Part shown: positions 5,101 through 47,473 of the stretch, in pieces | Layout of the letters: every line of letters begins with the position of its first letter | Numbering within the stretch: position 1 is the stretch's first letter | Source of the DNA: Parcubacteria group bacterium GW2011_GWA2_40_23 | GTDB lineage: Bacteria; Patescibacteriota; Patescibacteriia; UBA11705; JABHMO01 | DNA length: 64,000 nt | NCBI GenBank assembly: GCA_000996245.1 | Contig: LBYP01000002.1 | Span: 5,352-69,351, forward strand | Direction of reading: 5' to 3' | Notes under the pieces: generated by a model | The model's input: the letters and a program-made list of their open reading frames with translations, nothing else | Told to the model about the DNA's origin: nothing | Database searches by the model: none | Program-made: the position numbers and the translations under genes

Positions 5101-6006
5101 ATGGCTCAAAGTGGTCACGCGACAACTGAAGTGCAAGAAATAGAAACTGCTCAAACAGAAGAGGCAGTTACGCTTGGTCACAATTCTACGGATGCAAAAA
5201 CAGAAGTTTCGCACGAAGCTACTTTAGCGGCAGAACCAATTGCTCATTTTGGTGCTTTCCCAATTACAAATTCTTTATTAAATACCTGGATAGTTGTCGC
5301 TATCCTTTTTGTTTTTGCCATTGTTTTACGATCTAAATTGAAAATAATTCCAAAGGGTTTGCAGAATCTATTTGAAATTGTAGTTGATGGTGCCTTGAAT
5401 CTGTGCGACTCAGTAACTAATGACCGCAAAAAAACCTTAAAAGTTTTTCCAATCGTTTTTAGTTTCTTTATATTCATTTTAATTGCTAATTGGATGGGTT
5501 TAGTCCCGGGAATTGGTTCAATCGGATTTATTGAAACTGAAGGAGCTCATAGTATTTTTGTCCCATATTTTCGTGGTGGTACGGCCGATTTAAATACAAC
5601 ATTAGCTTTAGCTTTGATTGCAGTTATTGGTTCGAATATTTTCGGTATTATAGCAGTGGGCGGCTGGAAGTATTTTAATAAATTTGTAAATCTAAAAATT
5701 TTGGCTCGAATCCCATTTACGATAAAAAAGGATCCAAGTGTCATCATTGTTAACCCTATTAAGTTTTTTGTGGGTATTATAGAAATTATCGGTGAAGTGG
5801 CAAAAATTGCTTCGCTCTCTTTTCGGCTTTTTGGAAATGTTTTTGCTGGCGAGGTTCTACTTTCATCATTAGCTGTTATTTTGGCCTTTGGATTACCAAT
5901 ACCTTTTATGTTTTTGGAAGTTATAGTAGGTGTTATTCAGGCATTAATATTTGGCATGTTGACTTTGGTTTATTTCAGCATTGCCATGACTGAAGAAGAA
6001 CATTAA
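5101..6006 (+). CDS. atpB: F0F1 ATP synthase subunit a
   Basis: Polytopic membrane protein with the conserved LSFRLFGNVFAGE arginine motif. Confidence 0.9.
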   Translation: MAQSGHATTEVQEIETAQTEEAVTLGHNSTDAKTEVSHEATLAAEPIAHFGAFPITNSLLNTWIVVAILFVFAIVLRSKLKIIPKGLQNLFEIVVDGALNLCDSVTNDRKKTLKVFPIVFSFFIFILIANWMGLVPGIGSIGFIETEGAHSIFVPYFRGGTADLNTTLALALIAVIGSNIFGIIAVGGWKYFNKFVNLKILARIPFTIKKDPSVIIVNPIKFFVGIIEIIGEVAKIASLSFRLFGNVFAGEVLLSSLAVILAFGLPIPFMFLEVIVGVIQALIFGMLTLVYFSIAMTEEEH

Positions 6007-7565: not shown

Positions 7566-9104
7566 ATGGTACAAAAAAAAGACGATTACGTAATAGAAGC
7601 CTTAAAGAAACAAATTAATGAGTTCAAAGAACATGTATCAGTTGATACTGTTGGACGTGTTTTGGAAGTGGGCGATGGTATTGCCAAAATATCAGGACTT
7701 TCGAATGTTATGTATTCAGAAATGCTAGATTTTGGTTCTGGTGTCTTCGGTGTTGCTTTAAATCTTGAAGAGGATGCAGTCGGTGCCATGATTTTGGGTG
7801 ACTGGTTAAAGATTAAAGAAGGTGATGTCGTTAAAAGTACTGGACGTGTGTTGGAAGTTCCAGTGGGCGAGAATTTAATTGGACGTGTGGTTAACCCCTT
7901 GGGTGAAGCTATGGATGGCAAAGGAAAAATTGATTCAAAAATATTTTATCCAGTAGAAAAAATAGCGCCGGGTGTTATTACTCGAAAATCTGTAAATGTC
8001 CCAGTGCAAACTGGTATTAAAGCAGTTGATTCCATGATTCCAATCGGACGTGGTCAACGCGAACTTATTATTGGTGATCGTCAAACAGGCAAGACTGCCA
8101 TTGCTATTGATACAATTATCAACCAAAAAGGAAAAGATTTAATTTGTGTTTACGTTGCGATTGCTCAAAAGGAATCAAAGATTGCTAAGATTGTAGCCAA
8201 GCTCGAAGAAGCCGGTGCTATGGATCACACGATTATTGTTTTGGCGGGTGCTTCTGCTCCAACATCATTAAATTATATTGCGCCTTTTGCTGGTTGTGCC
8301 ATGGCAGAATATTTTATGGATAAGGGCAAGGATGTTTTAATAGTTTATGATGATTTATCAAAACATGCTGTAGCTTATCGCGAAATTTCATTGTTATTAC
8401 GCCGACCACCAGGACGTGAAGCTTATCCTGGAGATGTTTTCTATTTACATTCCAGATTATTAGAAAGATCCGCTCGCTTAGACAAGGAATATGGTGGTGG
8501 TTCTATTACTGCTTTGCCAATTATTGAAACTCAAGCAGGGGACATCTCTGCCTATATTCCCACAAATGTAATTTCAATTACTGATGGACAAATTTTCTTG
8601 GAAAGTGATTTGTTTTATCAGGGTATTCGTCCAGCGATTAATGTGGGTTTATCTGTTTCTCGTGTCGGTTCAAGCGCCCAAATTAAAGCTATGAAAAAAG
8701 TAGCTGGTAAATTACGTTTGGAGGTAGCGCAATATCGAGAATTGGCAGCCTTCGCTCAATTCGGTTCAGATTTAGATGAATCAACTAAGAATCAACTCGA
8801 ACGTGGTAAACGTATTGTTGAAATTTTGAAACAGGGTCAATACGTTCCAATGGCAGTTGAAAAACAAGTTGTGATTCTTTTTGCAGCAATTAAGGGATTA
8901 CTCGATAATGTTGATGTCAGCAAATTAAATGAATTTGAAATTGGTTTACATAATTATTTGGAAACTACAGTTCCAGAGATTTTGAAAGAAATTTTAGAGA
9001 AAAAAGAAATTGATGAAATGCTAGAAGCCAAAATCATTAAAACTATTAATGAATACAAGTCAACGGTAGAAGAACTATTGGTAAAAGCTGAGGCTGATGT
9101 TTAG
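7566..9104 (+). CDS. atpA: F0F1 ATP synthase subunit alpha
   Basis: Walker A GDRQTGKT. Start placed at ATG 7566 (MVQKKDDY...). The track start 7533 is a TTG overlapping atpH. Confidence 0.95.
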
Positions 9105-10170: not shown

Positions 10171-10189
10171 TTCAATTTAAAAATAGTAA

Positions 10190-11563
<1,374 letters not shown>

Positions 11564-12617: not shown

Positions 12618-13490
12618 ATGTCAAATGTAAAACAGTATAAAAGAAGGGAAAAGGGAAAAGGGATATGGGGTATGGGAGTTAGATCTTCCCTTATACCTTA
12701 CCCCATAATGCTTACCCCAAATAAATTGTTTTTTTGTTTTCTTGCTTTTTTGATTATGCTTACAGGTTGTACTAAAGTAGGTGATTATTCTTTCGTCAAT
12801 TATGGACTTAACACCAAGACCAATGAAATAGTAAAATCCGCAGATGGTCAATCCGTTTCTTGGGTATCACAAGATGTAAGTGGCGAAAAAGTAATGAACA
12901 GAATTTTTTCCGCAACAAACACCGGTAAAAACAAAACAGAACTTTTGAGTATGGAATTAGAGAAGGAACGTTCTTTACGTATTTTAGGTTTTTATCCAGA
13001 GAATAGCGTTTTCGTTTATGCTATCGAATATCAAAATCCAAACTTTGGAGTTGCTGTACAACGAGAAACTTTTTATAAATTTTTTAATGAAGATAATTCA
13101 CACAGTATTGGTAAAGATTATTTACGATTTTTCAAAACAGATCGTGGTGTCATGGGCTTAAGAGTCGGTGATGTCTTAGCTTACTATCAACTATCAATGA
13201 ACAATGCCTATGCGGTTGATTCTAAAAGTAATTACATCCAAGATAGTAAGGTAAAAGCATTATTTACAGATGCACAATTAACTCCTGATCTTAAAAAAAT
13301 TGTCTATACTTTTGAATATGAACCAGCAACTCAAGGCTATAATCAGAATAAGCTAATGGTCAGCGATTTTTATGGGGAGAATCGCAAGGAACTTGTCGCC
13401 TCAGACAAAAGTATTGATATTCTTGAAATGATTGGCAATGATAAAGTTAAGGTCAAAGTCGGGGATGAAGAAAAAGAGTTTTCCTTTTAA
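12618..13490 (+). CDS. Putative lipoprotein (likely true start ATG 12708)
   Basis: Lipobox LTGC after the hydrophobic stretch FFCFLAFLIM. From the in-frame ATG at 12708 the signal peptide is MLTPNKLFFCFLAFLIMLTGC. The upstream 30 codons overlap a G-rich hairpin motif. Confidence 0.6.
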   Translation: MSNVKQYKRREKGKGIWGMGVRSSLIPYPIMLTPNKLFFCFLAFLIMLTGCTKVGDYSFVNYGLNTKTNEIVKSADGQSVSWVSQDVSGEKVMNRIFSATNTGKNKTELLSMELEKERSLRILGFYPENSVFVYAIEYQNPNFGVAVQRETFYKFFNEDNSHSIGKDYLRFFKTDRGVMGLRVGDVLAYYQLSMNNAYAVDSKSNYIQDSKVKALFTDAQLTPDLKKIVYTFEYEPATQGYNQNKLMVSDFYGENRKELVASDKSIDILEMIGNDKVKVKVGDEEKEFSF

Positions 13491-13502
13491 GTAAATTATG
13501 AA

Positions 13503-13533
13503 GAGGCGAGCTAGGCTCGTCTCTTTTTGTTTT
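13503..13533 (+). terminator. Terminator of the lipoprotein gene (sequence re-used right of island B)
   Basis: GAGGCGAGC-tag-GCTCGTCTC followed by TTTTTGTTTT. Confidence 0.7.
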
Positions 13534-13637
13534 CATATAAATATCAATTGTCTAGTAGAGGAGAATATGGATAATTTGTAATTCGTAAAATAATGTTTAA
13601 ATTTAGCTAAAATAAGTAAGTGTCCATATGATTCCTG

Positions 13638-13666
13638 TTGACAAACATAAGAAAGTATGTTATTGT
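13638..13666 (+). promoter_or_regulatory. Sigma70-type promoter of island B
   Basis: TTGACA (13638-13643), 17-nt spacer aacataagaaagtatgt, TATTGT (13661-13666). Confidence 0.6.
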
Positions 13667-13705
13667 TATGGCAATTGAACCTGTGCTACAACGATGGAGG
13701 AATCC

Positions 13706-13990
13706 ATGGATCTGATCGGATTGGACATGAAGGCTCGTCAGGCTCGGGAGAAGTTCACGGTCGTGACCAAGCTGGGTGATGCGGTCTGGACGCCGGCGGA
13801 GATCAACCGACTGGTGCACCAGTACAGAACCATCATCAGCACGCTTCCCAGGATGCCCTCCGTCGCGATTCTCGCGGGAGAGTACTCCAAGGACCAGCTC
13901 GTCGCGTTCCTCGGGACGGACAACTTCACCGTCGAGCTGATGGTCGGTCGCCAGAACCCCAAGCTGCCGTTCAGCGCTCCGATGCTCTGA
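13706..13990 (+). CDS. Island B1: 94-aa GC-rich protein of unknown function, paralog of B2
   Basis: GGAGGA ends 4 nt before ATG 13706. G/C-ending codons dominate. About 45% identity to B2 over ~67 aa (KFTVVT..G..VW..E..RL....PR..SVAI.AGE.SK...V..LGTD.F.VEL.V). Confidence 0.7.
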   Translation: MDLIGLDMKARQAREKFTVVTKLGDAVWTPAEINRLVHQYRTIISTLPRMPSVAILAGEYSKDQLVAFLGTDNFTVELMVGRQNPKLPFSAPML

Positions 13991-14020
13991 GCGCGGCAAG
14001 TTCGAAAGAGAGGAACGGAC

Positions 14021-14248
14021 ATGCTGGTTCTGTTGACTCCTGCCAAGTTCACCGTCGTGACCTTGTTCGGTTTTGGGGTGTGGCATAAGGACGAGGTTCA
14101 ACGTCTGGCGAACAGGCTGAGAGCCTGCGTCTACACGTATCCAAGGAGGCTTTCGGTCGCGATCATCGCGGGAGAGCACTCCAAGGCTTCGATCGTGGAC
14201 GTCCTCGGTACGGACGACTTCGGCGTCGAGCTGAAGGTCAAGTGCTAG
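14021..14248 (+). CDS. Island B2: 75-aa GC-rich protein, paralog of B1
   Basis: AGAGAGGAA SD-like motif 5-6 nt before ATG 14021; same conserved blocks as B1; followed directly by terminators. Confidence 0.7.
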   Translation: MLVLLTPAKFTVVTLFGFGVWHKDEVQRLANRLRACVYTYPRRLSVAIIAGEHSKASIVDVLGTDDFGVELKVKC

Positions 14249-14282
14249 AAACCAGTCACTCAAGGTTTCAAGAGGCGAGCAG

Positions 14283-14351
14283 CTTCGTAGTTGCTCGCCT
14301 TTTAAATTTTAGGAAATGAGACAACTCGTCTCTTTTTGTTTATTATGCTAA
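14283..14351 (+). terminator. Two tandem terminators closing island B
   Basis: AGGCGAGC-N12-GCTCGCCT + TTTTAAATTTT (14283-14320), then GAGAC-N5-GTCTC + TTTTTGTTT (14328-14351). Their outer halves, AAGAGGCGAGC and CTCGTCTCTTTTTGTTT, duplicate the host terminator at 13501-13532. Confidence 0.7.
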
Positions 14352-14364
14352 TATTTACTTGAAT

Positions 14365-17337
14365 ATGAGCTTATTAGAATCATCAAACAAAGAGCAGCTT
14401 TCAGCTATTATGCATGAGGCTGGGCCTCAGCTGATCGTTGCCGGAGCGGGGACGGGCAAGACGCGAGTAATTACAGCCCGTATAGCTTATTTAATTACAG
14501 AAAAAAACATAAATGTCGACGAAATTCTGGCTTTGACTTTTACTGACAAAGCAGCCGAAGAAATGGAAGAACGTGTAGATAAAATGTTGCCTTATGGCTA
14601 TGTCGACTTGTGGATTTCAACTTTTCACTCCTTTTGTGACAAACTATTAAAACGCCACGCTCTCGATATTGGACTCTCTAACAATTATAAACTTATAAAC
14701 GAAACTGAGGCTTGGTTACTGATTAAAAAGAATTTAGCGCGTTTTGATTTGGATTATTACCGTCCGCTTGGTAATCCAACCAAATTTATTCATGCTTTGC
14801 TAAAACATTTTTCGCGTTGTAAAGATGAGGGCATTTCGGCCGAAGAATATTTGGAATTTGCTGATGGTTTAAAATTGGACTTGGATGTAACTGATTATGT
14901 AAAAAAATTAGATTTGCCAGAAGACTTTGCGGAACTGAAGAAAGAAGAAAAACAAGCGTTGCTCAAACAGGAAATTATTCGAATTAATGAAATCGCTAAG
15001 GCATATCACACATATCAACAAATATTAATCGAAAATGATTGCTTGGATTTTGGCGATTTGCACAATTACGCCATTAAACTTTTTAAAGATCGTCCCTTGA
15101 TTTTAGATAAATATCGACGTCAATTTAAATATATACTTGTCGATGAATTTCAGGACACAAATTTTGTTCAATATGAACTCATCAAGCTTTTAGCAGCTCC
15201 CAAAAATAATTTGACAGTGGTGGGGGATGATGACCAGTCAATTTATAAATTCCGAGGAGCTTCTATTAGTAATATCATGCAATTTAAAGAAGATTACCCA
15301 AACGCGCAGGAAGTTGTCTTAACGGAAAACTATCGATCGGCGCAGGAAATTTTAGATTTGTCATATAATTTTATTAAGCAAAATGATCCTAATCGGTTGG
15401 AAGCGAAGTTGAATATCAATAAAAAATTAAAATCGAATAAAACTGAGCAGGGAGTTATCGATCACAAACATTTTGAAACTATCGATGCTGAAGCGCAGTT
15501 TGTTATAAGTCAGATTCGAGAAATACAAAAAGTAACTCAGTGCGAGTGGAAACAATTTGCCATATTGGTACGTGCCAATGAAAGCGCTAATATTTTTATT
15601 AGTTATTTAGATTCCGCAAATATTCCATATCAGTTCTTAGCATTACGTGGATTGTATACGAAGCCAGTCATTGTTGATTTGCTCAACTACCTAAAGTTGT
15701 TAGATGATTATCATGAGGGAGCTTCGGTTTATCGATTGTTAAATTTCCCATGTTTCAAATTAAAAACTGATCAAATCATCAAAATTGTTCATTATGCAAA
15801 GCAAAAAAGTTTTTCATTGTACGACACGTTGAAGAAGATTGTTATAATTCCTGGTATTGAAATGGAAACAATAACTCAGGTTGGGAAAATATATGCTCAG
15901 GTTGAAGCTGATACTGCTTTGGCACAAAAGAAACGTCCGACCGAAGTCTTGCTAAATTTTTTATACACTTCCGGTTATTTAGAACACGTAAAAAATTTGG
16001 ACGAAAAAATTGCTAAAGAAAATTTAGATTATATCCAACAGTTTTTTCAAAAAGTTAAAGAGATAGAAACCACTTACGAAGATGCGCGCATTAAAGATAT
16101 AGTCGAGGTTTTTGATTTAGAATTGCAATCTGGCGAAGCTGGGCGATTGGCTTTTGATGTTGAAACAGGTCCAGACATGGTAAAGGTCATGACAGTGCAT
16201 GGATCAAAAGGTTTGGAGTTTGACTATGTTTTCTTGCCAAATCTTGTCGACCGTAAATTCCCAACAGACGAACGCAAAGAGGCTATCGAGATTCCAGCAG
16301 CCTTGATTGAAGAAAAACTGCCCGAAGGTAATTTCCATTTAGAAGAAGAACGCCGACTTTTTTATGTGGCGATGACTCGAGCGCGACGTGGTTTATTTTT
16401 TACATCGGCAGAGGATTATGGCGGAGTACGCAAAAAAAGGTTATCGAGATTTTTAATAGAAATGGGTTATAAAAAAGATTATGACATCCAATCGACTGAA
16501 ACTATTTTAATCAAGCCAAGTAAATCATCAGCAGTTGATAAATTTGTTTATGAATTACCAAAAAGATTTAGCTTTTCGCAAATTGCAACTTACGAAAAAT
16601 GTCCTTTACAATACAAATACGGAAATATTTTAAAAATCCCAGCTTTTGGCAGTCATTATTTTACTTTTGGTACAATTATCCACTCAACTTTGCAGAAATT
16701 TCTAGAAGAATCGTATCAAGTTAATAATAATGTTCAAGAAGATTTATTTAGCAATATAAAAAAGACGATTAAAAAGGGAACTTTGCCCTTGGATCGATTG
16801 TATCAAGTTTATGATGATGTTTGGTTTGATGATTGGTTCCAAGATCCTAAGCAGAAAGAAGAATATTATAAAAAAGGAAAAGCTTTGCTGAAAAGTTTTC
16901 ATGCTGATTTTAATTCAGAGTTACCAGAAGTAAGAAATCTCGAAATATCATTTAAATTGCCAGTCGGCCCATATTTCTTTTCTGGTAGAATTGATCGAGT
17001 CGATAATTTAGAGTCTGGTTTAGTGCAGATCATTGATTATAAAACCGGGCAAGCCAAGGATGATAAATTAACAACAGATGACAAACGTCAACTTTTATTT
17101 TATCAGATTGCGGCCGAGGAAGCCTTAAAGTTGAAAGTTGAAAAGATGACATACCATTATTTAGAAGAAAATAAGAAAATATCTTTTATGGGTAAAGAAA
17201 AAGACAAGGAAGAATTAAAGAAAAGATTTATTGAAGATATTGAATTGATCAAGGCACAGAAATTCGAAGCCACGCCAAGTCCTTATGTTTGTGGTAGTTG
17301 CGATTATCGAAATATTTGTGAGCATAAAAAATTGTAA
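14365..17337 (+). CDS. UvrD/PcrA-type superfamily-1 helicase fused to a C-terminal PD-(D/E)XK, Cas4/AddB-like 4-Cys nuclease
   Basis: Walker A GAGTGKT, motif II VDEFQDTN, C-terminal Cys cluster KCPLQ ... CGSCDYRNIC (CX2CX5C). Start at ATG 14365 (track start 14359 is TTG). Confidence 0.85.
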   Translation: MSLLESSNKEQLSAIMHEAGPQLIVAGAGTGKTRVITARIAYLITEKNINVDEILALTFTDKAAEEMEERVDKMLPYGYVDLWISTFHSFCDKLLKRHALDIGLSNNYKLINETEAWLLIKKNLARFDLDYYRPLGNPTKFIHALLKHFSRCKDEGISAEEYLEFADGLKLDLDVTDYVKKLDLPEDFAELKKEEKQALLKQEIIRINEIAKAYHTYQQILIENDCLDFGDLHNYAIKLFKDRPLILDKYRRQFKYILVDEFQDTNFVQYELIKLLAAPKNNLTVVGDDDQSIYKFRGASISNIMQFKEDYPNAQEVVLTENYRSAQEILDLSYNFIKQNDPNRLEAKLNINKKLKSNKTEQGVIDHKHFETIDAEAQFVISQIREIQKVTQCEWKQFAILVRANESANIFISYLDSANIPYQFLALRGLYTKPVIVDLLNYLKLLDDYHEGASVYRLLNFPCFKLKTDQIIKIVHYAKQKSFSLYDTLKKIVIIPGIEMETITQVGKIYAQVEADTALAQKKRPTEVLLNFLYTSGYLEHVKNLDEKIAKENLDYIQQFFQKVKEIETTYEDARIKDIVEVFDLELQSGEAGRLAFDVETGPDMVKVMTVHGSKGLEFDYVFLPNLVDRKFPTDERKEAIEIPAALIEEKLPEGNFHLEEERRLFYVAMTRARRGLFFTSAEDYGGVRKKRLSRFLIEMGYKKDYDIQSTETILIKPSKSSAVDKFVYELPKRFSFSQIATYEKCPLQYKYGNILKIPAFGSHYFTFGTIIHSTLQKFLEESYQVNNNVQEDLFSNIKKTIKKGTLPLDRLYQVYDDVWFDDWFQDPKQKEEYYKKGKALLKSFHADFNSELPEVRNLEISFKLPVGPYFFSGRIDRVDNLESGLVQIIDYKTGQAKDDKLTTDDKRQLLFYQIAAEEALKLKVEKMTYHYLEENKKISFMGKEKDKEELKKRFIEDIELIKAQKFEATPSPYVCGSCDYRNICEHKKL

Positions 17338-17396: not shown

Positions 17397-18377
17397 CTAG
17401 TTGGTGAGCACGTGGCTGATGTCCATGTCCGGACTGACGATCAGCTTCTGTGCCGTGTTCTCGCCGATGACCTCGATCGCCTCGTTCGGACCCGTACCCA
17501 GGTTCGGGATGAACCCGATCTGGATGTACGAGTACTGCTCGAGGGGATCGACGTCGCAGCGCACGTCGAAGGCCGTCGTGGTGCCCTTGGGTAGGAAGAT
17601 GTCCGTCAGGTCATGGAAGACGAGCTGCGCGTTCCATCCCTCGGTGTTTACGTAGGGTTGACCCTGGTAGGCCAGGGTGTGGCCACCCGAGATCAGGCTG
17701 CAGTTGCGCACCTTCTCGAAGTGGTCCCCGGTCATCATCATCGACAGCGTGACCTCGGTGAGAACGCCGTCCTCGGCGTAGGCCGTGTCTTCGGCGTCGA
17801 CCATCAGGTAGAACGTGAACAAGTGGACCTGCGAACCTTCGACGAGCAGGTTGCTGGTTTCCTTCTTCCAGACCATGACGGTCGAGAATTGCGGCTCCAT
17901 GTACGGCGCGCAGACTTCTTCGACGGAGCAGTAGAACGTACGGTTGCCCCTGGCGATGGCGTCGTAGAAGGCTTGGAAGTTGCTGTGCCAGACGTTCATC
18001 ATCGCGATCTGCTTCTGCGCCGCGATCCGTCGCAGCTTGTAGGTCGGGATCATGGCGATGGGGTATTTGGGGTCTCCCGCCAAGGCCAGCTTGATCTTCC
18101 AGGTGTTGGTCGTCGCGTTCTGCGTCGCCTTGGCCAGGAACTGGCCCTCGTACTGGAAGTAGTAGCTGATGTTGTCGGTGAAGTTGGTCCACCCGACGCA
18201 GTCGGTGCCGTACCAGTCCGGCAACTGGCCGGTCAGGTTGAAGTAGTCGATGCTTTCCTGGTTGTACGTCTCGGCGACGTACTTGAGGTCGGCGAAGGTC
18301 TGGGGCGGACCGCCCCCGGCGTACGCGGCACTCGAGAAGCACAGGACGGCGAGCAGGGCGATGAGGGTCTTCTTCAT
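17397..18377 (-). CDS. Island C: secreted 326-aa GC-rich protein of unknown function
   Basis: Signal peptide MKKTLIALLAVLCFSSAAYA. GGAGGA lies 7 nt before the ATG. Near-exclusive NNC/NNG codon usage (checked codon by codon). Several Cys residues; no motif I can name. Confidence 0.8.
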   Translation of the reverse strand: MKKTLIALLAVLCFSSAAYAGGGPPQTFADLKYVAETYNQESIDYFNLTGQLPDWYGTDCVGWTNFTDNISYYFQYEGQFLAKATQNATTNTWKIKLALAGDPKYPIAMIPTYKLRRIAAQKQIAMMNVWHSNFQAFYDAIARGNRTFYCSVEEVCAPYMEPQFSTVMVWKKETSNLLVEGSQVHLFTFYLMVDAEDTAYAEDGVLTEVTLSMMMTGDHFEKVRNCSLISGGHTLAYQGQPYVNTEGWNAQLVFHDLTDIFLPKGTTTAFDVRCDVDPLEQYSYIQIGFIPNLGTGPNEAIEVIGENTAQKLIVSPDMDISHVLTN

Positions 18378-18447
18378 CTCGGATTCCTCCTTCGGACGTT
18401 TCGAACCTTAGATCGATGGTGTACATCACCAATCTCTCTTTGGCACC

Positions 18448-18476
18448 ATTCTAGCATGTTTTTAATAAATTGTCAA
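18448..18476 (-). promoter_or_regulatory. Sigma70-type promoter of island C
   Basis: Reverse strand TTGACA (18476-18471), 17-nt spacer atttattaaaaacatgc, TAGAAT (18453-18448); ~64-nt leader. Confidence 0.7.
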
Positions 18477-18499
18477 ACCTATTTTCATCGTTTTGCGAG

Positions 18500-18520
18500 C
18501 CTGCCTGCCGGCCAGGCAGG
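18500..18520. other. Isolated GC hairpin ~25 nt upstream of the island C -35 box
   Basis: CCTGCCTG-ccggc-CAGGCAGG, 8-bp perfect stem, no T-tract on either strand. Confidence 0.4.
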
Positions 18521-18661
18521 GAGCACTTTCGTTAAAAAGCGACGTGGCAATCTCTAATTCGATTTCTAATTAATCAAATCAATAGGTTATACATTTTTAT
18601 TCGTAAATTTAGCAAAATACTAGATACTGTCTAAGCGAACCTAACTGCAAATCGAGGATAC

Positions 18662-18696
18662 TAATCATGATAATCATGAAAATCATAGTTAATCAT
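18662..18696 (-). repeat. Phased array of four ATGATTA-like heptamers abutting the island D terminator
   Basis: taatcat at 18662, 18671, 18690 and aaatcat at 18680 (period 9-10 bp). Homologous to the array at 299-344. Confidence 0.6.
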
Positions 18697-18699
18697 GGC

Positions 18700-18735
18700 A
18701 AAAAAGAGCCCCACCGTTCGCGACGAACGGTGGGG
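18700..18735 (-). terminator. Intrinsic terminator of island D
   Basis: Reverse strand CCCCACCGTTCG-tcg-CGAACGGTGGGG (12-bp perfect stem) followed by CTCTTTTTT. Confidence 0.8.
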
Positions 18736-18740
18736 CAGGG

Positions 18741-19364
18741 CTAGAAGTTCCAGACCAGGCGCAGGTACAGCACGTGGTCACCCGCGATCTCCGGCGTGAA
18801 GTCGTAGGCGACCCAGATTCGGCCCGCGCCGAGCAAGATCGAGGGGCCGATGGCCGCCTCGTCGAACGTCTTCTCGGAGAAGAAGTTCTCCTGGACGATG
18901 CCGAACCCAGCGATGTTGCCTGGCTTCATCCAGTCGAGGGTGGTCAGCGTGTAGTAGTTCCGCTGCACGTGCCCCTTGTCGCCGTCGACAGGGAAGTAGA
19001 CGTCGCCCTCGACGCACAGGAGCAGGTCGCTTGGCAAGGGCTGCGTGAGCCAGATGCTCGCGAGAGCGGACATGCCGCCGTCGTTGGTCATCCAGAGACC
19101 TCCCAGGAGCTTGAGGTTCGTCTTCGTCGACAGGACGCTCATCTCCGGCCCGAAGTAGCCGAAGATCATGGAGTTGCCGCGCATTGACACCAGGCCGGTG
19201 GCGTGGGCGTAGATGCCGCCCGTGATGTTCTCGCTGAGCGTGAACGGGGAGAAGGTTCGGCCCAGGGTGACCAGGAACTGGCCGTTGGACTCGACCTTGG
19301 CCTCGGCGGCCGTGGGGATGATCATCGCACACAGCAACAGGATCACGAGCAGGAAGCGCTTCAT
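18741..19364 (-). CDS. Island D: 207-aa secreted protein with outer-membrane beta-barrel-like features
   Basis: Start placed at MKRF (ATG 19364) with GGAGG 5 nt upstream. Signal peptide MKRFLLVILLLCAMIIPTAAEA. Gly/aromatic-rich alternating pattern. C-terminus YLRLVWNF has hydrophobic residues at positions -1, -3, -5, -7 and a terminal Phe (classical OMP beta-signal). Confidence 0.7.
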   Translation of the reverse strand: MKRFLLVILLLCAMIIPTAAEAKVESNGQFLVTLGRTFSPFTLSENITGGIYAHATGLVSMRGNSMIFGYFGPEMSVLSTKTNLKLLGGLWMTNDGGMSALASIWLTQPLPSDLLLCVEGDVYFPVDGDKGHVQRNYYTLTTLDWMKPGNIAGFGIVQENFFSEKTFDEAAIGPSILLGAGRIWVAYDFTPEIAGDHVLYLRLVWNF

Positions 19365-19409
19365 CGAAGCCTCCAAAGTGGTGTGACGTCCCGTGAAACA
19401 GGACATTCT

Positions 19410-19438: not shown

Positions 19439-19762
19439 ATGCAAGGCATTAGTGGTATACTAAAATCAACTTTCAATAAAAGAAGTGTCCTCAGCAAACA
19501 AGTGCAATCTGGGATGATTGTTGAGTTTGTTAATGAACTAATTCATGAATACTGGGGCAAAAAGGGCGCTGAACAGGCAAAGGCTAAATTTATAAAAAAT
19601 AAAATTTTAACTATATTTACTGTAAATGCAGGCATGTCGCAGGAAATTAAATTTAAACAAAATAAAATATTAGAAACAGTTAACACTAGGTTTGATGAGC
19701 GGGTACTTAATCAATTAAAAATCGTTGCCGGCGGAATTGACAAAGGCGATGATATACCGTAA
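19439..19762 (+). CDS. DUF721/DciA-like small protein (host-type composition except the last ~13 codons)
   Basis: 107 aa with pattern W..VVG-like EYWGKKGAEQAKAKFIKNKILTIFTVNAGMSQEIKF, typical of DUF721. The 3' end, GTTGCCGGCGGAATTGACAAAGGCGATGATATACCGTAA, is GC-richer and contains the island E -35 box. Confidence 0.5.
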   Translation: MQGISGILKSTFNKRSVLSKQVQSGMIVEFVNELIHEYWGKKGAEQAKAKFIKNKILTIFTVNAGMSQEIKFKQNKILETVNTRFDERVLNQLKIVAGGIDKGDDIP

Positions 19763-45103: not shown

Positions 45104-45220
45104 TACCTGTTATTCAAGTGTTTACCTTAGCTTTTTGAGGCTGAGTTAATTTCCGCCTTTTAAAGGTGTAGTGAACACCACAAGTGATCTGTTCCCCAAC
45201 CATCCGTGAGGAGGTGCCTG

Positions 45221-46735
45221 ATGCTGTACCAGAAACTGCTCGATGCGAAGATCGGAGTCGGTCCGGCCACCATCACCAAGCTCGACGAGGCGGGTCTCAA
45301 GACCGCCGAGGCCATCCTGGCCGCCGGGCTCGACGGGCTGCGCGCCATCAAGGTCTTCCCGCCGATCGCGGGCAAGATCCTCGAGGTCGCGCTCGCCAAC
45401 CCGACGCCCGCCACCGAGATCGAGGCCGCGTCGGCCCCGATCATCCTCCACCCCGACGACGCGGCCAAGGTGGCCGAGGTCGCCCCCACCACCACGAAAA
45501 ACGAGACCCCCGCGGTCCTGGTCAAGCGGCAGACGGTGTTCGCCGCCAAGCTCGAGGAGGCCGCCAAGGCCAACGGTACGACGGTGGAGGAGCTCCGCGC
45601 CGCCGCCAAGGCCAACGTGCCGGCCGAGAAGCCGGTCGTGGTGACCCACAAGACCCTGGCCAAGCCCGAGAACGAGCACGTGAACTTCATCGACGTCGGG
45701 ATCGAAACCCCGACCGAGTTCACGAGCCCCGTGCGTCTGCGCGACTTCTTCGACAAGCTGCCCAAGGGGCAGGTGCCGGACAGCGCGCGCTACATCAAGA
45801 ACCTCTTCCCCGTCTGCGCGATGTGTCGCGCCGCGGGCAGCACGAAGACCCTCCAGATCGACCACGTGCACGTGCTCGTGGTCACCCGTCTCGACGGCAG
45901 CGTCAACAGCGGTTTGTTCTGCGACGACCACATCACGGTGGCGTACGGACAGGCCAAGGACCTGGTCAAGGACGGGAAGCTGAAGGAGGTCAAGATCATC
46001 TGGCTGCGCGAGGCGTGGGCCAACCTGACCCGCGCGTACAGGGCGCAGGTCGACGAGGCGCGCGAAGAGCGCTACCGCAAGGAGCGCGCCGACCGCCGCA
46101 CGGCCGCCCTCCGGGCCGTGATGGAGGATCTCGGCTCGGTGACCAGCGAGCACTGGATGACCGACGAGCAGCTCGGCAGCTACGTGTCGCCCATGGACGT
46201 CCCGGTCTTCACGTGCGGACTCGAGGCGAAGCAGGCCCGTGAGCTGCACCTCCTGCCCAACGACAAGGAGAAGGGTACGTTCAAGGGGCGCTGGGGGCGG
46301 TTCTACGACGAGTACGGCATCCGGCTCGTCATGCGGCCCCCGCAGGACCTGACCCAGCACAACACGCTCGTCCAGCACTTGCGGGACGACGCCAAGGCCG
46401 CCCAGGCCACGCCGTTCTTCCCCGTCGTCCTGGTCCGCCGTTACTTCGGTGACGACCTGGGCTGGCGCTACCTGGCGATCCACGAACTGGTCATCGAGGA
46501 GTTCGTGGCGACCTACGAGCAGGCGCACAACTTCAAGGTGCGCACCGGGGCCATGGCCTACGAGTGGCTGACCCGTCGCTGGGAGGTCCAGCGCGAAGAA
46601 GCCGCCAAGGCCGCGGCGCAGGCGTTCGCCAAGAGCGACGAAGGCAAGGCGCTGAACGCCTTCCTCAACGCCGCCCCGGACGACGAGGCCGCCGCCGACA
46701 GCGCCCTGTTGGCCGGCAGCGCCCACAAGAAGTAA
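45221..46735 (+). CDS. Island G: 504-aa GC-rich protein with N-terminal helix-hairpin-helix pair and a CxxC..DH..N..CxxH (HNH-like) motif
   Basis: GAGGAGG lies 6 nt before ATG 45221. HhH-like KIGVGPATITKLDEAG and LRAIKVFPPIAGKILE. Cys/His motif VCAMCRAAGSTKTLQIDHVHV...VNSGLFCDDH (nt 45815-45931). Strong G/C third-position bias only in this frame. Confidence 0.75.
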   Translation: MLYQKLLDAKIGVGPATITKLDEAGLKTAEAILAAGLDGLRAIKVFPPIAGKILEVALANPTPATEIEAASAPIILHPDDAAKVAEVAPTTTKNETPAVLVKRQTVFAAKLEEAAKANGTTVEELRAAAKANVPAEKPVVVTHKTLAKPENEHVNFIDVGIETPTEFTSPVRLRDFFDKLPKGQVPDSARYIKNLFPVCAMCRAAGSTKTLQIDHVHVLVVTRLDGSVNSGLFCDDHITVAYGQAKDLVKDGKLKEVKIIWLREAWANLTRAYRAQVDEAREERYRKERADRRTAALRAVMEDLGSVTSEHWMTDEQLGSYVSPMDVPVFTCGLEAKQARELHLLPNDKEKGTFKGRWGRFYDEYGIRLVMRPPQDLTQHNTLVQHLRDDAKAAQATPFFPVVLVRRYFGDDLGWRYLAIHELVIEEFVATYEQAHNFKVRTGAMAYEWLTRRWEVQREEAAKAAAQAFAKSDEGKALNAFLNAAPDDEAAADSALLAGSAHKK

Positions 46736-46757
46736 CGTTCAACAACGTTCGTAGCCG

Positions 46758-46795
46758 CCTCCCGAGGACTCATTTCTCGGGGGGCGCTTTTTTTT
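46758..46795 (+). terminator. Terminator of island G; its T-tract runs into the -35 box of island H
   Basis: CCTCCCGAG-N9-CTCGGGGGG followed by CGCTTTTTTTT. The last Ts are the first bases of TTGACA at 46794. Confidence 0.7.
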
Positions 46796-46822
46796 GACAA
46801 ATATACACCTGAACTCTATGAT
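46794..46822 (+). promoter_or_regulatory. Sigma70-type promoter of island H
   Basis: TTGACA (46794-46799), 17-nt spacer aatatacacctgaactc, TATGAT (46817-46822). Confidence 0.7.
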
Positions 46823-46855
46823 TGTACTAAGTGGTACTGTTCTAAGGAGCGTGGC

Positions 46856-47473
46856 ATGAATGCGAAACATCTTCCTCCGCCCACTCCCACGACGCTCTCC
46901 GAAGCGTTTTGGCCCCTGTTCATGACGAACAAAGTGATGGTGCGTTTTGTCGGTGCGTATATCTGCTTCGGCGTGGCAGATGACAGCAACCGACTACTCG
47001 TAGTGTATGCACACGACACTGCCAGCCGATTGCATCTTCCTACACAGGAAGCAATTGCTCGAGCGTTCCCTCTGCGGAATGCCAAACAACAAGAATACAC
47101 CGGACCACATGATCTGCCAGTGTCGTACAGTGACATTCAACGAGTTCGCAACGTGATGCGTTATGAGTTTCTTCAGGAAAACCGGCGCGTCTTACTGCTT
47201 GTTTCGACTCCTGAGGAGTCGGTAGTTGAAAACCAGGAACAACTCATGTTCATCCAATGGAGTAGACCGAACCCACTTCAAATTGCTCGCATCGTCGAAA
47301 CTATTGGTGCGGATCGTGTCCACGTCGTACGAAAAAATGCGCTGGAAACGCGCCTCCTGGTGGAGTTGAAACCCAATGAACGATTGAAGTTCTCTGTGAC
47401 CGGTTGCCACTTCAGCAGCCCCTTTGCAACTGCGGCTCTGTTGCCGGTGCAGTGCGACACCTGCACTGCTTGA
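46856..47473 (+). CDS. Island H: 205-aa protein of unknown function (intermediate GC)
   Basis: AAGGAG lies 6 nt before the ATG. Bounded by its own promoter and terminator. No recognisable motif. C-terminal Cys pair CDTC. Confidence 0.65.
   Translation: MNAKHLPPPTPTTLSEAFWPLFMTNKVMVRFVGAYICFGVADDSNRLLVVYAHDTASRLHLPTQEAIARAFPLRNAKQQEYTGPHDLPVSYSDIQRVRNVMRYEFLQENRRVLLLVSTPEESVVENQEQLMFIQWSRPNPLQIARIVETIGADRVHVVRKNALETRLLVELKPNERLKFSVTGCHFSSPFATAALLPVQCDTCTA

Follow-up and report, generated by a model that had tools for sequence, protein, structure and literature searches.

How did copies of one host transcription terminator come to lie on both sides of a small block of GC-rich genes? The question is raised by a 64,000-nucleotide (nt) stretch of the groundwater organism Parcubacteria group bacterium GW2011_GWA2_40_23 (contig LBYP01000002.1, forward-strand positions 5,352 to 69,351; hereafter the window), in which an islet separates the gene for a 290-amino-acid (aa) protein from that for a UvrD-type helicase-nuclease. 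Our data show a 0.8-kb cassette, made up of an extended -10 promoter, a ribosome-binding site (RBS), two high-GC paralogous open reading frames (ORFs) and a strong terminator, set in a spacer that ancestrally held one 32-nt terminator, which we call T0. We think it probable that this host terminator was duplicated around a horizontally moving cassette without a recombinase, and that the cassette spread via conserved sequence patches.

The islet is bounded by two exact repeats. An 11-mer, AAGAGGCGAGC, occurs at 13501-13511 and again at 14270-14280, and a 17-mer, CTCGTCTCTTTTTGTTT, at 13516-13532 and 14325-14341 (spacings of 769 nt and 809 nt); no other flanking direct repeats were reported by a repeat search of 13400-14450. 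On the left the two read AAGAGGCGAGC-tagg-CTCGTCTCTTTTTGTTT (13501-13532), ten bases past the stop of the ORF at 12618-13490, exactly as an earlier reading of this locus from its letters alone (the sequence-only reading) had it. On the right they recur in the same order, separated by 44 nt, which also agrees with that reading; its right-hand coordinates (14280-14290 and 14335-14351) proved to be 10 nt too high, and the cassette that it drew at 13533-14334, which was about right, becomes 13533-14324.

Neither string occurs elsewhere in the window; common motifs were what the sequence-only reading had said would count against it. Within the window, the 17-mer has two matches at up to two mismatches where 0.03 would be expected, a number that shuffles never attained; the 11-mer, at up to one mismatch, matches only its two copies and their own complementary arms. 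In 568 kb of the window and related loci, this junction is the one place where the arm motif GAGRYGAG forms part of a hairpin. Some likeness is to be expected of terminators, which have GC-rich stems and T-runs in common, but this uniqueness and the failure of shuffles to yield the 17-mer pair make chance or a genome-wide terminator motif a very improbable source of the repeats. An assembly chimera is just as improbable: identical sequence is found at the locus in the independent assemblies SRR3309152 and JGI 3300025152, and SRR29904083 matches by gene content. Six further contigs carry the lipoprotein-gene allele of L033, a relative with the same islet (lipoprotein being the sequence-only reading's name for the 290-aa protein, which we keep for the gene); three of them are identical to L033 across the whole islet and three into its first ~250 nt. 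Because the same sequence recurs in independent assemblies, the locus is no assembly artefact and its junctions are not chimeric.

The repeats belong to three hairpins. T0-left (13501..13532, plus strand) is a complete copy of the ancestral host intrinsic terminator in its ancestral left context, with arms at 13501-13511 and 13515-13525 followed by a T-tract. Its 12-bp stem plus TTTTTGTTT, 10 nt past the stop, folds at -18 kcal/mol (z = -5), giving the GC-rich stem-loop, T-tract and position 3' of a stop codon of an intrinsic terminator; termination itself is predicted. In the window and L033 this stem holds one G.T pair where relatives with an empty site have A-T. T1 (14270..14303, plus strand; extended stem 14267-14306), which holds the right 11-mer, is a strong hairpin terminator with a stem of at least 15 bp (-27.4 kcal/mol, z = -8). 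Its arms are those of T0 with one compensated pair (A-T to G-C), it is identical at 34 of 34 positions in L033, and it is found in the more distant relative L034 too. T1 looks like a third, remodelled copy of T0, serving as the predicted cassette terminator. T2, together with an ancestral spacer, spans 14304..14341 (plus strand; hairpin 14318-14341): its 5' arm has decayed to GAGAC (14318-14322), while its 3' arm and T-tract form the right 17-mer, leaving a 5-bp stem of -7.9 kcal/mol (z = -2). The 11-mer repeat is thus T0-left against T1, and the 17-mer repeat T0-left against T2. The claim that each repeated half had been completed into a hairpin of its own holds strongly for the 11-mer and weakly for the 17-mer. 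We also considered a duplication that included the helicase promoter and coding start, and rejected it: alignments running past the 17-mer, both local and anchored, gave z < 2 against shuffles and random AT-rich 22-mers.

Relatives that share the gene order, found through homologues of the 290-aa protein, reveal the state without an islet. An empty site is present in four lineages (five contigs: L036, L037, L038/L039 and L040), where the spacer from the 290-aa gene to the helicase gene is 60-65 bp long and holds a single T0. The order there is the lipoprotein stop, ~10 nt, the hairpin AAGAGACGAGC-TAG-GCTCGTCTCTTTTTGTTT and the helicase promoter, with the consensus AAGAGA(C/T)GAGC-TAG-(G/A)CTCGTCTCTTTTTGTTT, then (T/A)ATATG(C/G)TAATATT, after which the helicase gene starts. 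Of the six lineage types other than the window, whether their site is occupied or empty, five show 100% conservation of the 17-mer; L036 departs from it at one position, and its T0 keeps the ancestral A in the arm. Because the empty sites carry a single hairpin, that hairpin is the ancestral host terminator, duplicated at the islet site. The check that the sequence-only reading had proposed, a search for empty junctions, therefore came out in its favor, and these single-terminator sites support its suggestion that insertion happened at, or with copying of, a host terminator.

Its further proposal that the right-hand copy had been split is where the evidence parts from it. In L034 and L035, T0-left is absent and the lipoprotein stop abuts a promoter and leader homologous to those of the window; an unrelated 70-aa ORF lies between this shared promoter and leader and the T1-T2 pair. 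(We tested this ORF as a degraded homologue of the window's cargo, and a family hidden Markov model (HMM) run against six-frame translations found nothing.) The L034 version of T2 reads ATGAGACGA-CTGAA-CTCGTCTCTTTTTGTTT (with CTCGTCTC... after CTGAA), a whole hairpin whose 5' arm is homologous to that of T0. The window's T2 and the spacer upstream of it align to empty-site junctions at 80-82% over ~40 nt. Given this alignment and the whole hairpin in L034, T2 is the second T0 copy and has stayed in the setting that the terminator ancestrally had on its right.

These observations bear on the literal form of the split, in which 44 nt were inserted into the loop of a single right-hand T0 and provided each half with a complement. 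The 11-mer and 17-mer are indeed exact, in order and 44 nt apart, and T0-left reads like the 5' arm of T1 (G at position 6) joined to the 3' arm of T2 (T), which would give its G.T pair. Yet T2 in L034 comes with a separate 5' arm that is a homologue of the T0 one (~18 of 23 positions identical, read by eye), so the 17-mer element is a whole terminator copy and not a 3' half. T1, likewise, is no 5' half: it is a complete, strong hairpin conserved in three lineage types and stands in L034 behind a different ORF. The stretch from T1 to T2 also resembles the ancestral spacer, and a tandem spacer-plus-hairpin duplicate fits it better than a foreign 44-nt insert. Insertion of an arm, spacer and arm into a loop is formally the same structure as a tandem hairpin duplication, and we judge the insertion quite unlikely. 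What stands of the earlier proposal is that the terminator is repeated; in place of one intact and one split copy there are three terminator-derived hairpins.

L033 carries the same islet as the window, with T0-left, T1 and T2, and adds one further change. The 5' arm of its T2 is lost, GAGAC being replaced by the reverse complement GTCTC, which no longer pairs with the 3' arm, and the segment comprising the 17-mer and its downstream flank (L033 9598-9640) shows no significant fold. This exchange amounts to three clustered substitutions that turn a hairpin into a direct repeat (L033:9598-9612 versus window 14314-14332), and it looks like a template-switch mutation. Despite the lost arm, the 17-mer and the helicase promoter are 100% and 96% identical between the window and L033. 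That the 17-mer stays identical where the T2 arm is gone argues for a role of the 17-mer beyond termination.

Divergence differs sharply between the islet genes and their neighbours. Flank identity pairs L033 with L036 as its sister and leaves the window outside the pair; L036 is empty. Between the window and L033, the synonymous divergence (dS) is 0.19 for ORF1 and 0.16 for ORF2, as against 1.36 for the lipoprotein gene and 1.68 for the helicase gene, and 1.5-1.6 directly beside the islet (last 300 nt of the lipoprotein gene and first 360 nt of the helicase gene); L033 and L036 differ by a dS of 0.5-1.0. At synonymous sites the cargo is ~8-10 times younger than the flanking host genes. Because its dS lies below that of the flanks and below that between L033 and L036, and because L036 is empty, the cargo must have entered at least one of these lineages after the window/L033 split and after the L033/L036 split. 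From ORF1 through T1, the window and L033 agree at 91-100% of positions (55 of 55 in the tail and T1) and identity falls on both sides, to 76-88% in the stretches flanking the islet, within a backbone of roughly 72-90%. The transferred tract ends in the intergenic region, near the repeats. With cargo dS far below flank dS, and with the closest relative of L033 empty, horizontal movement of the islet between diverged lineages, as a unit bounded by terminator copies, is the reading that we infer.

The same comparison speaks to an opposite history, in which the islet and its triple-hairpin slot were ancestral to the window, L033, L036 and L034, L036 lost them through recombination between repeats, and the low cargo divergence reflects later gene conversion or sweeps in an existing slot. 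This would explain why the promoter and leader and the T1-T2 pair are common to the more distant L034 at backbone-like divergence and why the leader is older than the cargo, and precise deletion between the direct repeats could restore a single T0. A deletion through the 17-mer, however, would have kept the G of the carriers' T0-left, whereas L036 has the ancestral A-T pair. A cargo dS of 0.16-0.19 is also below the 0.5-1.0 that separates L033 from L036. Nor does L036 seem to have received its empty allele from a distant lineage, an idea that we rejected because L033 is its nearest relative along the entire flanks, as far as the junction itself. We consider ancestral presence followed by loss unlikely.

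A trace of the rearrangement itself may survive within the islet. The ancestral junction (lipoprotein end, stop and spacer) recurs in inverted form at 13596..13620 on the minus strand. Within this copy, TTTAAATTTAGCTAAAAT (13596-13613) matches the L038/L039 junction, read as its reverse complement, at 18 of 18 positions, with 17/17 in L040 and 16/16 in L033 (z ~8 against shuffles), and contains the palindrome TTTAGCTAAA (13602-13611); the palindromic core occurs nowhere else in the window. Between the window and L033 the fragment is 92% conserved, its neighbours 41-71%. A string resembling it recurs at 14301-14317, after T1. We tried several inversion, circle and Campbell schemes on paper, and no single clean rearrangement path for T0-left, the inverted fragment, T1 and T2 together fitted the observed order.

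How, then, would a duplicated terminator help a cassette to spread? The most likely route would be uptake of related DNA and its recombination in the handful of patches whose conservation is perfect (the terminator, and the promoter and start of the helicase gene), with the duplicated terminator acting as a portable homology arm. Three effects may have favored retention of the duplication: transcription of the upstream gene still terminates, the cassette is insulated, and the promoter elements overlapping the terminator's 3' half survive. As to its origin, the three copies, the inverted junction fragment and the clustered arm inversion in L033 suggest that the first duplication was probably an illegitimate, replication-type event at the palindrome, by tandem duplication or template switching.

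Several points weigh against this account of terminator duplication and spread through conserved patches. That origin is a reconstruction, no event having been directly observed, and the absence of T0-left from L034 could mean either that duplication came first or that a copy was added or deleted later. A precise loss in L036 followed by back-mutation is conceivable. The patches of homology are short, ~17-30 nt, and the promoter and terminator functions at the locus are predicted ones. Our Pfam scan, which found no recombinase gene in or beside the islet, covered the ORFs at ~10-18 kb of the window. Finally, the AT-rich leader (13533-13705) is ~74% identical between the window and L033, which makes it more diverged than the cargo's synonymous sites, although it is alignable, unlike some backbone intergenic stretches. 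Because the leader is older than the cargo, slot and cargo may have partly separate histories, which would fit the different ORF in the L034 slot.

The serious rival is a recombinase acting in trans; loop insertion and ancestral presence with loss are less well supported. Here the repeats would be sites like attL and attR, used by an integrase encoded elsewhere or a host Xer-type enzyme that acts on the palindrome, with the exact 17-mer as the crossover core, in parallel to integrative mobile elements exploiting Xer (IMEX) and pdif modules. An exact 17-nt core does stand at both ends and once in the empty site, the transferred tract stops at the repeats and not inside the flanking genes, and pdif modules and IMEX elements likewise lack a recombinase of their own. 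In a further genome, L044, an islet with a member of the same protein family is flanked by an exact repeat of 15 nt, which shares positions with the arm of a terminator. But no recombinase gene accompanies the islet, and T0 has an 11-3-11 layout, GC-rich and with a T-run, against the 11-6-11 of dif. Since the 17-mer is conserved in nearly all the lineage types compared, function alone explains its identity between the copies; three hairpin copies and an inverted fragment are not expected of a clean site-specific event; and a search with T0 and T1 found no matching sites in viral contigs. We therefore rate a trans-acting recombinase as a possibility to be taken seriously, if an improbable one, and retain duplication of the host terminator with homologous spread as the preferred reading.

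The cassette opens with an AT-rich segment of 63 nt (13533..13595), 71% identical to L033 and without significant similarity to the 5' region of the helicase gene. A predicted promoter follows at 13638..13666 on the plus strand (TTGACA and TATTGT, 17 nt apart, with a TG extended -10); L033 conserves this promoter, and in L034 it has the form TCGACA...TAATTT. The 5' untranslated region (13667..13705, plus strand), with the RBS GGAGG at 13696-13700, is homologous to the leader of L034's unrelated ORF. ORF1 (13706..13990, plus strand) encodes 94 aa from ATG 13706, with a GC content at third codon positions (GC3) of 0.84. Mechanical ORF calling starts it at 13694, but L033 has no ATG there and members of the protein family begin MDL or MNL, which makes ATG 13706 the most likely start. 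ORF2 (14021..14248, plus strand; 75 aa, GC3 0.79) is a paralogue with 54% identity to ORF1 over 65 aa and lacks the C-terminal DNPxLPF motif. We discarded a 218-aa minus-strand ORF in the islet as a by-product of high GC. The islet holds no transposase or integrase (Pfam) and, between 13400 and 14450 and hairpins aside, no terminal inverted repeats.

Both cargo proteins belong to an unannotated family of ~95 aa that comprises 66 clusters at 50% identity. The window ORFs have no match in Pfam, PHROGs or PADLOC, and three relatives gave sub-threshold matches only (E 0.02-0.06). Three of the four members whose context we examined lie in islets (window, L043 and L044), and no neighbouring gene is conserved across the loci. 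Since members found in higher-GC Patescibacteria are not compositional outliers there, a donor within Patescibacteria fits the data; gene exchange in the Candidate Phyla Radiation (CPR)/Patescibacteria is extensive and mostly internal to the group (PMC12455944).

Two of these loci deserve description. In L044 (GCA_043755535.1) the family member lies between exact 15-nt direct repeats, TATAAAACAAAACCG, at 1409-1423 and 1891-1905, the right one overlapping the 5' arm of a hairpin with a T-run after it, so that here too a terminator half is repeated on either side of an islet that carries the family. In L043 (ENA ERZ27253820 k141_109571; L043:4737-6857) a 2.1-kb block sits between rpsS and rplB of the S10 ribosomal-protein operon and holds four small opposite-strand ORFs, including one family member and one DUF5317 protein; we found no repeat flanking this block.

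The host genes around the islet are arranged as atpD, atpC, cvpA, the 290-aa protein and the helicase-nuclease. The upstream gene (12618..13490, plus strand) encodes the hypothetical protein listed by NCBI as UT32_C0009G0021 in Parcubacteria group bacterium GW2011_GWC2_39_14. Downstream (14359..17337, plus strand; likely start ATG 14365) lies a UvrD-type helicase with a PD-(D/E)XK nuclease domain, with relatives in Kuenenbacteria, Falkowbacteria and other Patescibacteria. Its promoter is inferred from an extended -10, TGCTAATAT, read at 14346..14354 on the plus strand; in all seven lineages this element (TGnTAATAT) lies ~5 nt past the terminator T-tract, and the -35 position falls within the terminator 3' arm. 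The extended -10 ends ~10 nt 5' of ATG 14365 and no Shine-Dalgarno sequence is seen (window 14346-14367), so that the helicase mRNA may be leaderless or almost leaderless. An interruption of ~1.1 kb, possibly an intein, intron or insertion, splits the helicase gene of two distant Patescibacteria at residue 294/295 (L024:6870-7978, L031:6897-7969). L033 has an extra gene of host composition between atpG and atpD (L033:4593-5512), with a lipoprotein-like signal peptide, that is absent from the window (10171-10198). BLAST coordinates had made this ~900 bp of extra DNA a candidate second target duplication; we dropped it because the overlap around the gene was only low-complexity sequence.

The window as a whole has a GC content of 30-40%, with several islands of 55-70%. 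Island A (~360-1260, high GC) is bracketed by a 16-nt, 88% repeat, AGYAAAAAAAGRAGGG, at 345-360 and 1340-1355; each copy consists of the A-tract and stem of a minus-strand terminator, and the two belong to different hairpins, so the repeat may reflect convergence of terminator halves and not duplication. The island past the helicase gene (17397-19406) is ~60% GC in all relatives (L034 from ~12200, L038 from ~4400, L040 ~7800-8400), those with an empty site included, and encodes two signal-peptide proteins without a Pfam match. It is 55-72% identical at the nt level between the window and L033, against ~80% for the backbone, and its high GC appears to persist over long divergence. Directly after it (island C), 19439-19762 encodes a small protein of the DciA family, a helicase-loader type. 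A further island of 65-70% GC (45146-47473), between a gltX-like gene and other host genes, holds ORFs of 509 aa and 205 aa, neither with a Pfam match.

The genomes of CPR/Patescibacteria are tiny, mobile-element genes are rarely recognisable in them and genetic tools are lacking, yet the group exchanges much DNA (PMC12455944). Against that background, the locus offers a concrete and polymorphic case of foreign genes that enter and spread as a small unit without an encoded recombinase. With the terminator duplicated at the landing site, both neighbours would keep their signals, and conserved patches would bound the moving unit. Should the pattern prove general, recent islets and their exact borders could be recognised in uncultivated genomes by a simple signature, the duplicated halves of a terminator. 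The analysis also defines the unannotated ~95-aa family, one islet member of which lies inside a ribosomal-protein operon. Hints of generality come from the L034 slot with its different ORF, the half-terminator repeat of L044 and the terminator-half repeats of island A. In the literature that we searched, we found no description of terminator duplication at islets.

How does this arrangement compare with known systems? A target-site duplication of transposons or insertion sequences has a fixed length of ~2-14 bp; here the unit is a 32-nt hairpin (~40 nt with spacer) in up to three copies. Like Tn7, which inserts downstream of glmS, and group IIC introns, which insert at terminator stem-loops, the islet sits directly after a terminator, where it is safe for the flanking genes. 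Those elements, however, encode their own machinery (TnsABCD; an intron RNA and a reverse transcriptase (RT)) and make a 5-bp duplication or none, unlike the islet, for which Rfam gave no match in the window and the scanned ORFs contained no RT domain. Quasipalindrome template switching and slipped-strand duplication share with our locus the multiple local copies of a palindromic junction, one of them inverted, and the clustered 3-nt change in L033, but alone they do not import 0.6 kb of foreign high-GC coding DNA.

Site-specific systems come closer. In attL/attR islands and prophages, too, direct repeats of tens of bp bound the insert, the empty site has one copy, and the repeat restores the 3' end of a functional host element. 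The identical core and single empty-site copy are both present here. The islet differs in having no integrase, a target other than a tRNA or tmRNA gene (a tRNA scan found neither in the window), a size of only 0.8 kb, three target copies and an inverted junction fragment. It shares with pdif modules and IMEX small size, lack of a recombinase, short imperfect palindromes and different cargo in the same slot. Their 28-bp dif-like site (11-nt XerC arm, 6-nt centre, 11-nt XerD arm) has no counterpart in T0, a GC-rich 11-3-11 hairpin with a T-run; the repeats are direct here and inverted around pdif modules, and a role for Xer at this locus is hypothetical. The arrangement thus behaves like attL/attR or pdif boundaries, yet lacks the features that define them, namely the recombinase, the dif-like layout and the tRNA target.

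Integron cassettes, finally, also pair a small ORF with a following imperfect palindrome and place different cargo at a fixed expression site; the islet differs in having its own promoter and in using the host's own terminator as the palindrome. Read by eye, T0, T1 and T2 contain no attC cores R''/R' (RYYYAAC / GTTRRRY), and the Pfam scan, limited to the range given above, showed no IntI nearby. We can nevertheless imagine, at low probability, that CPR bacteria have a cassette system without a recombinase of its own, for which the host's palindromic terminator serves as recombination site. Small islets of promoter, ORF and terminator, flanked on either side by terminator copies, would then pass between diverged lineages and exchange their cargo at fixed slots. 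Such a system would be a functional analogue of integron attC sites and pdif, built from terminators.

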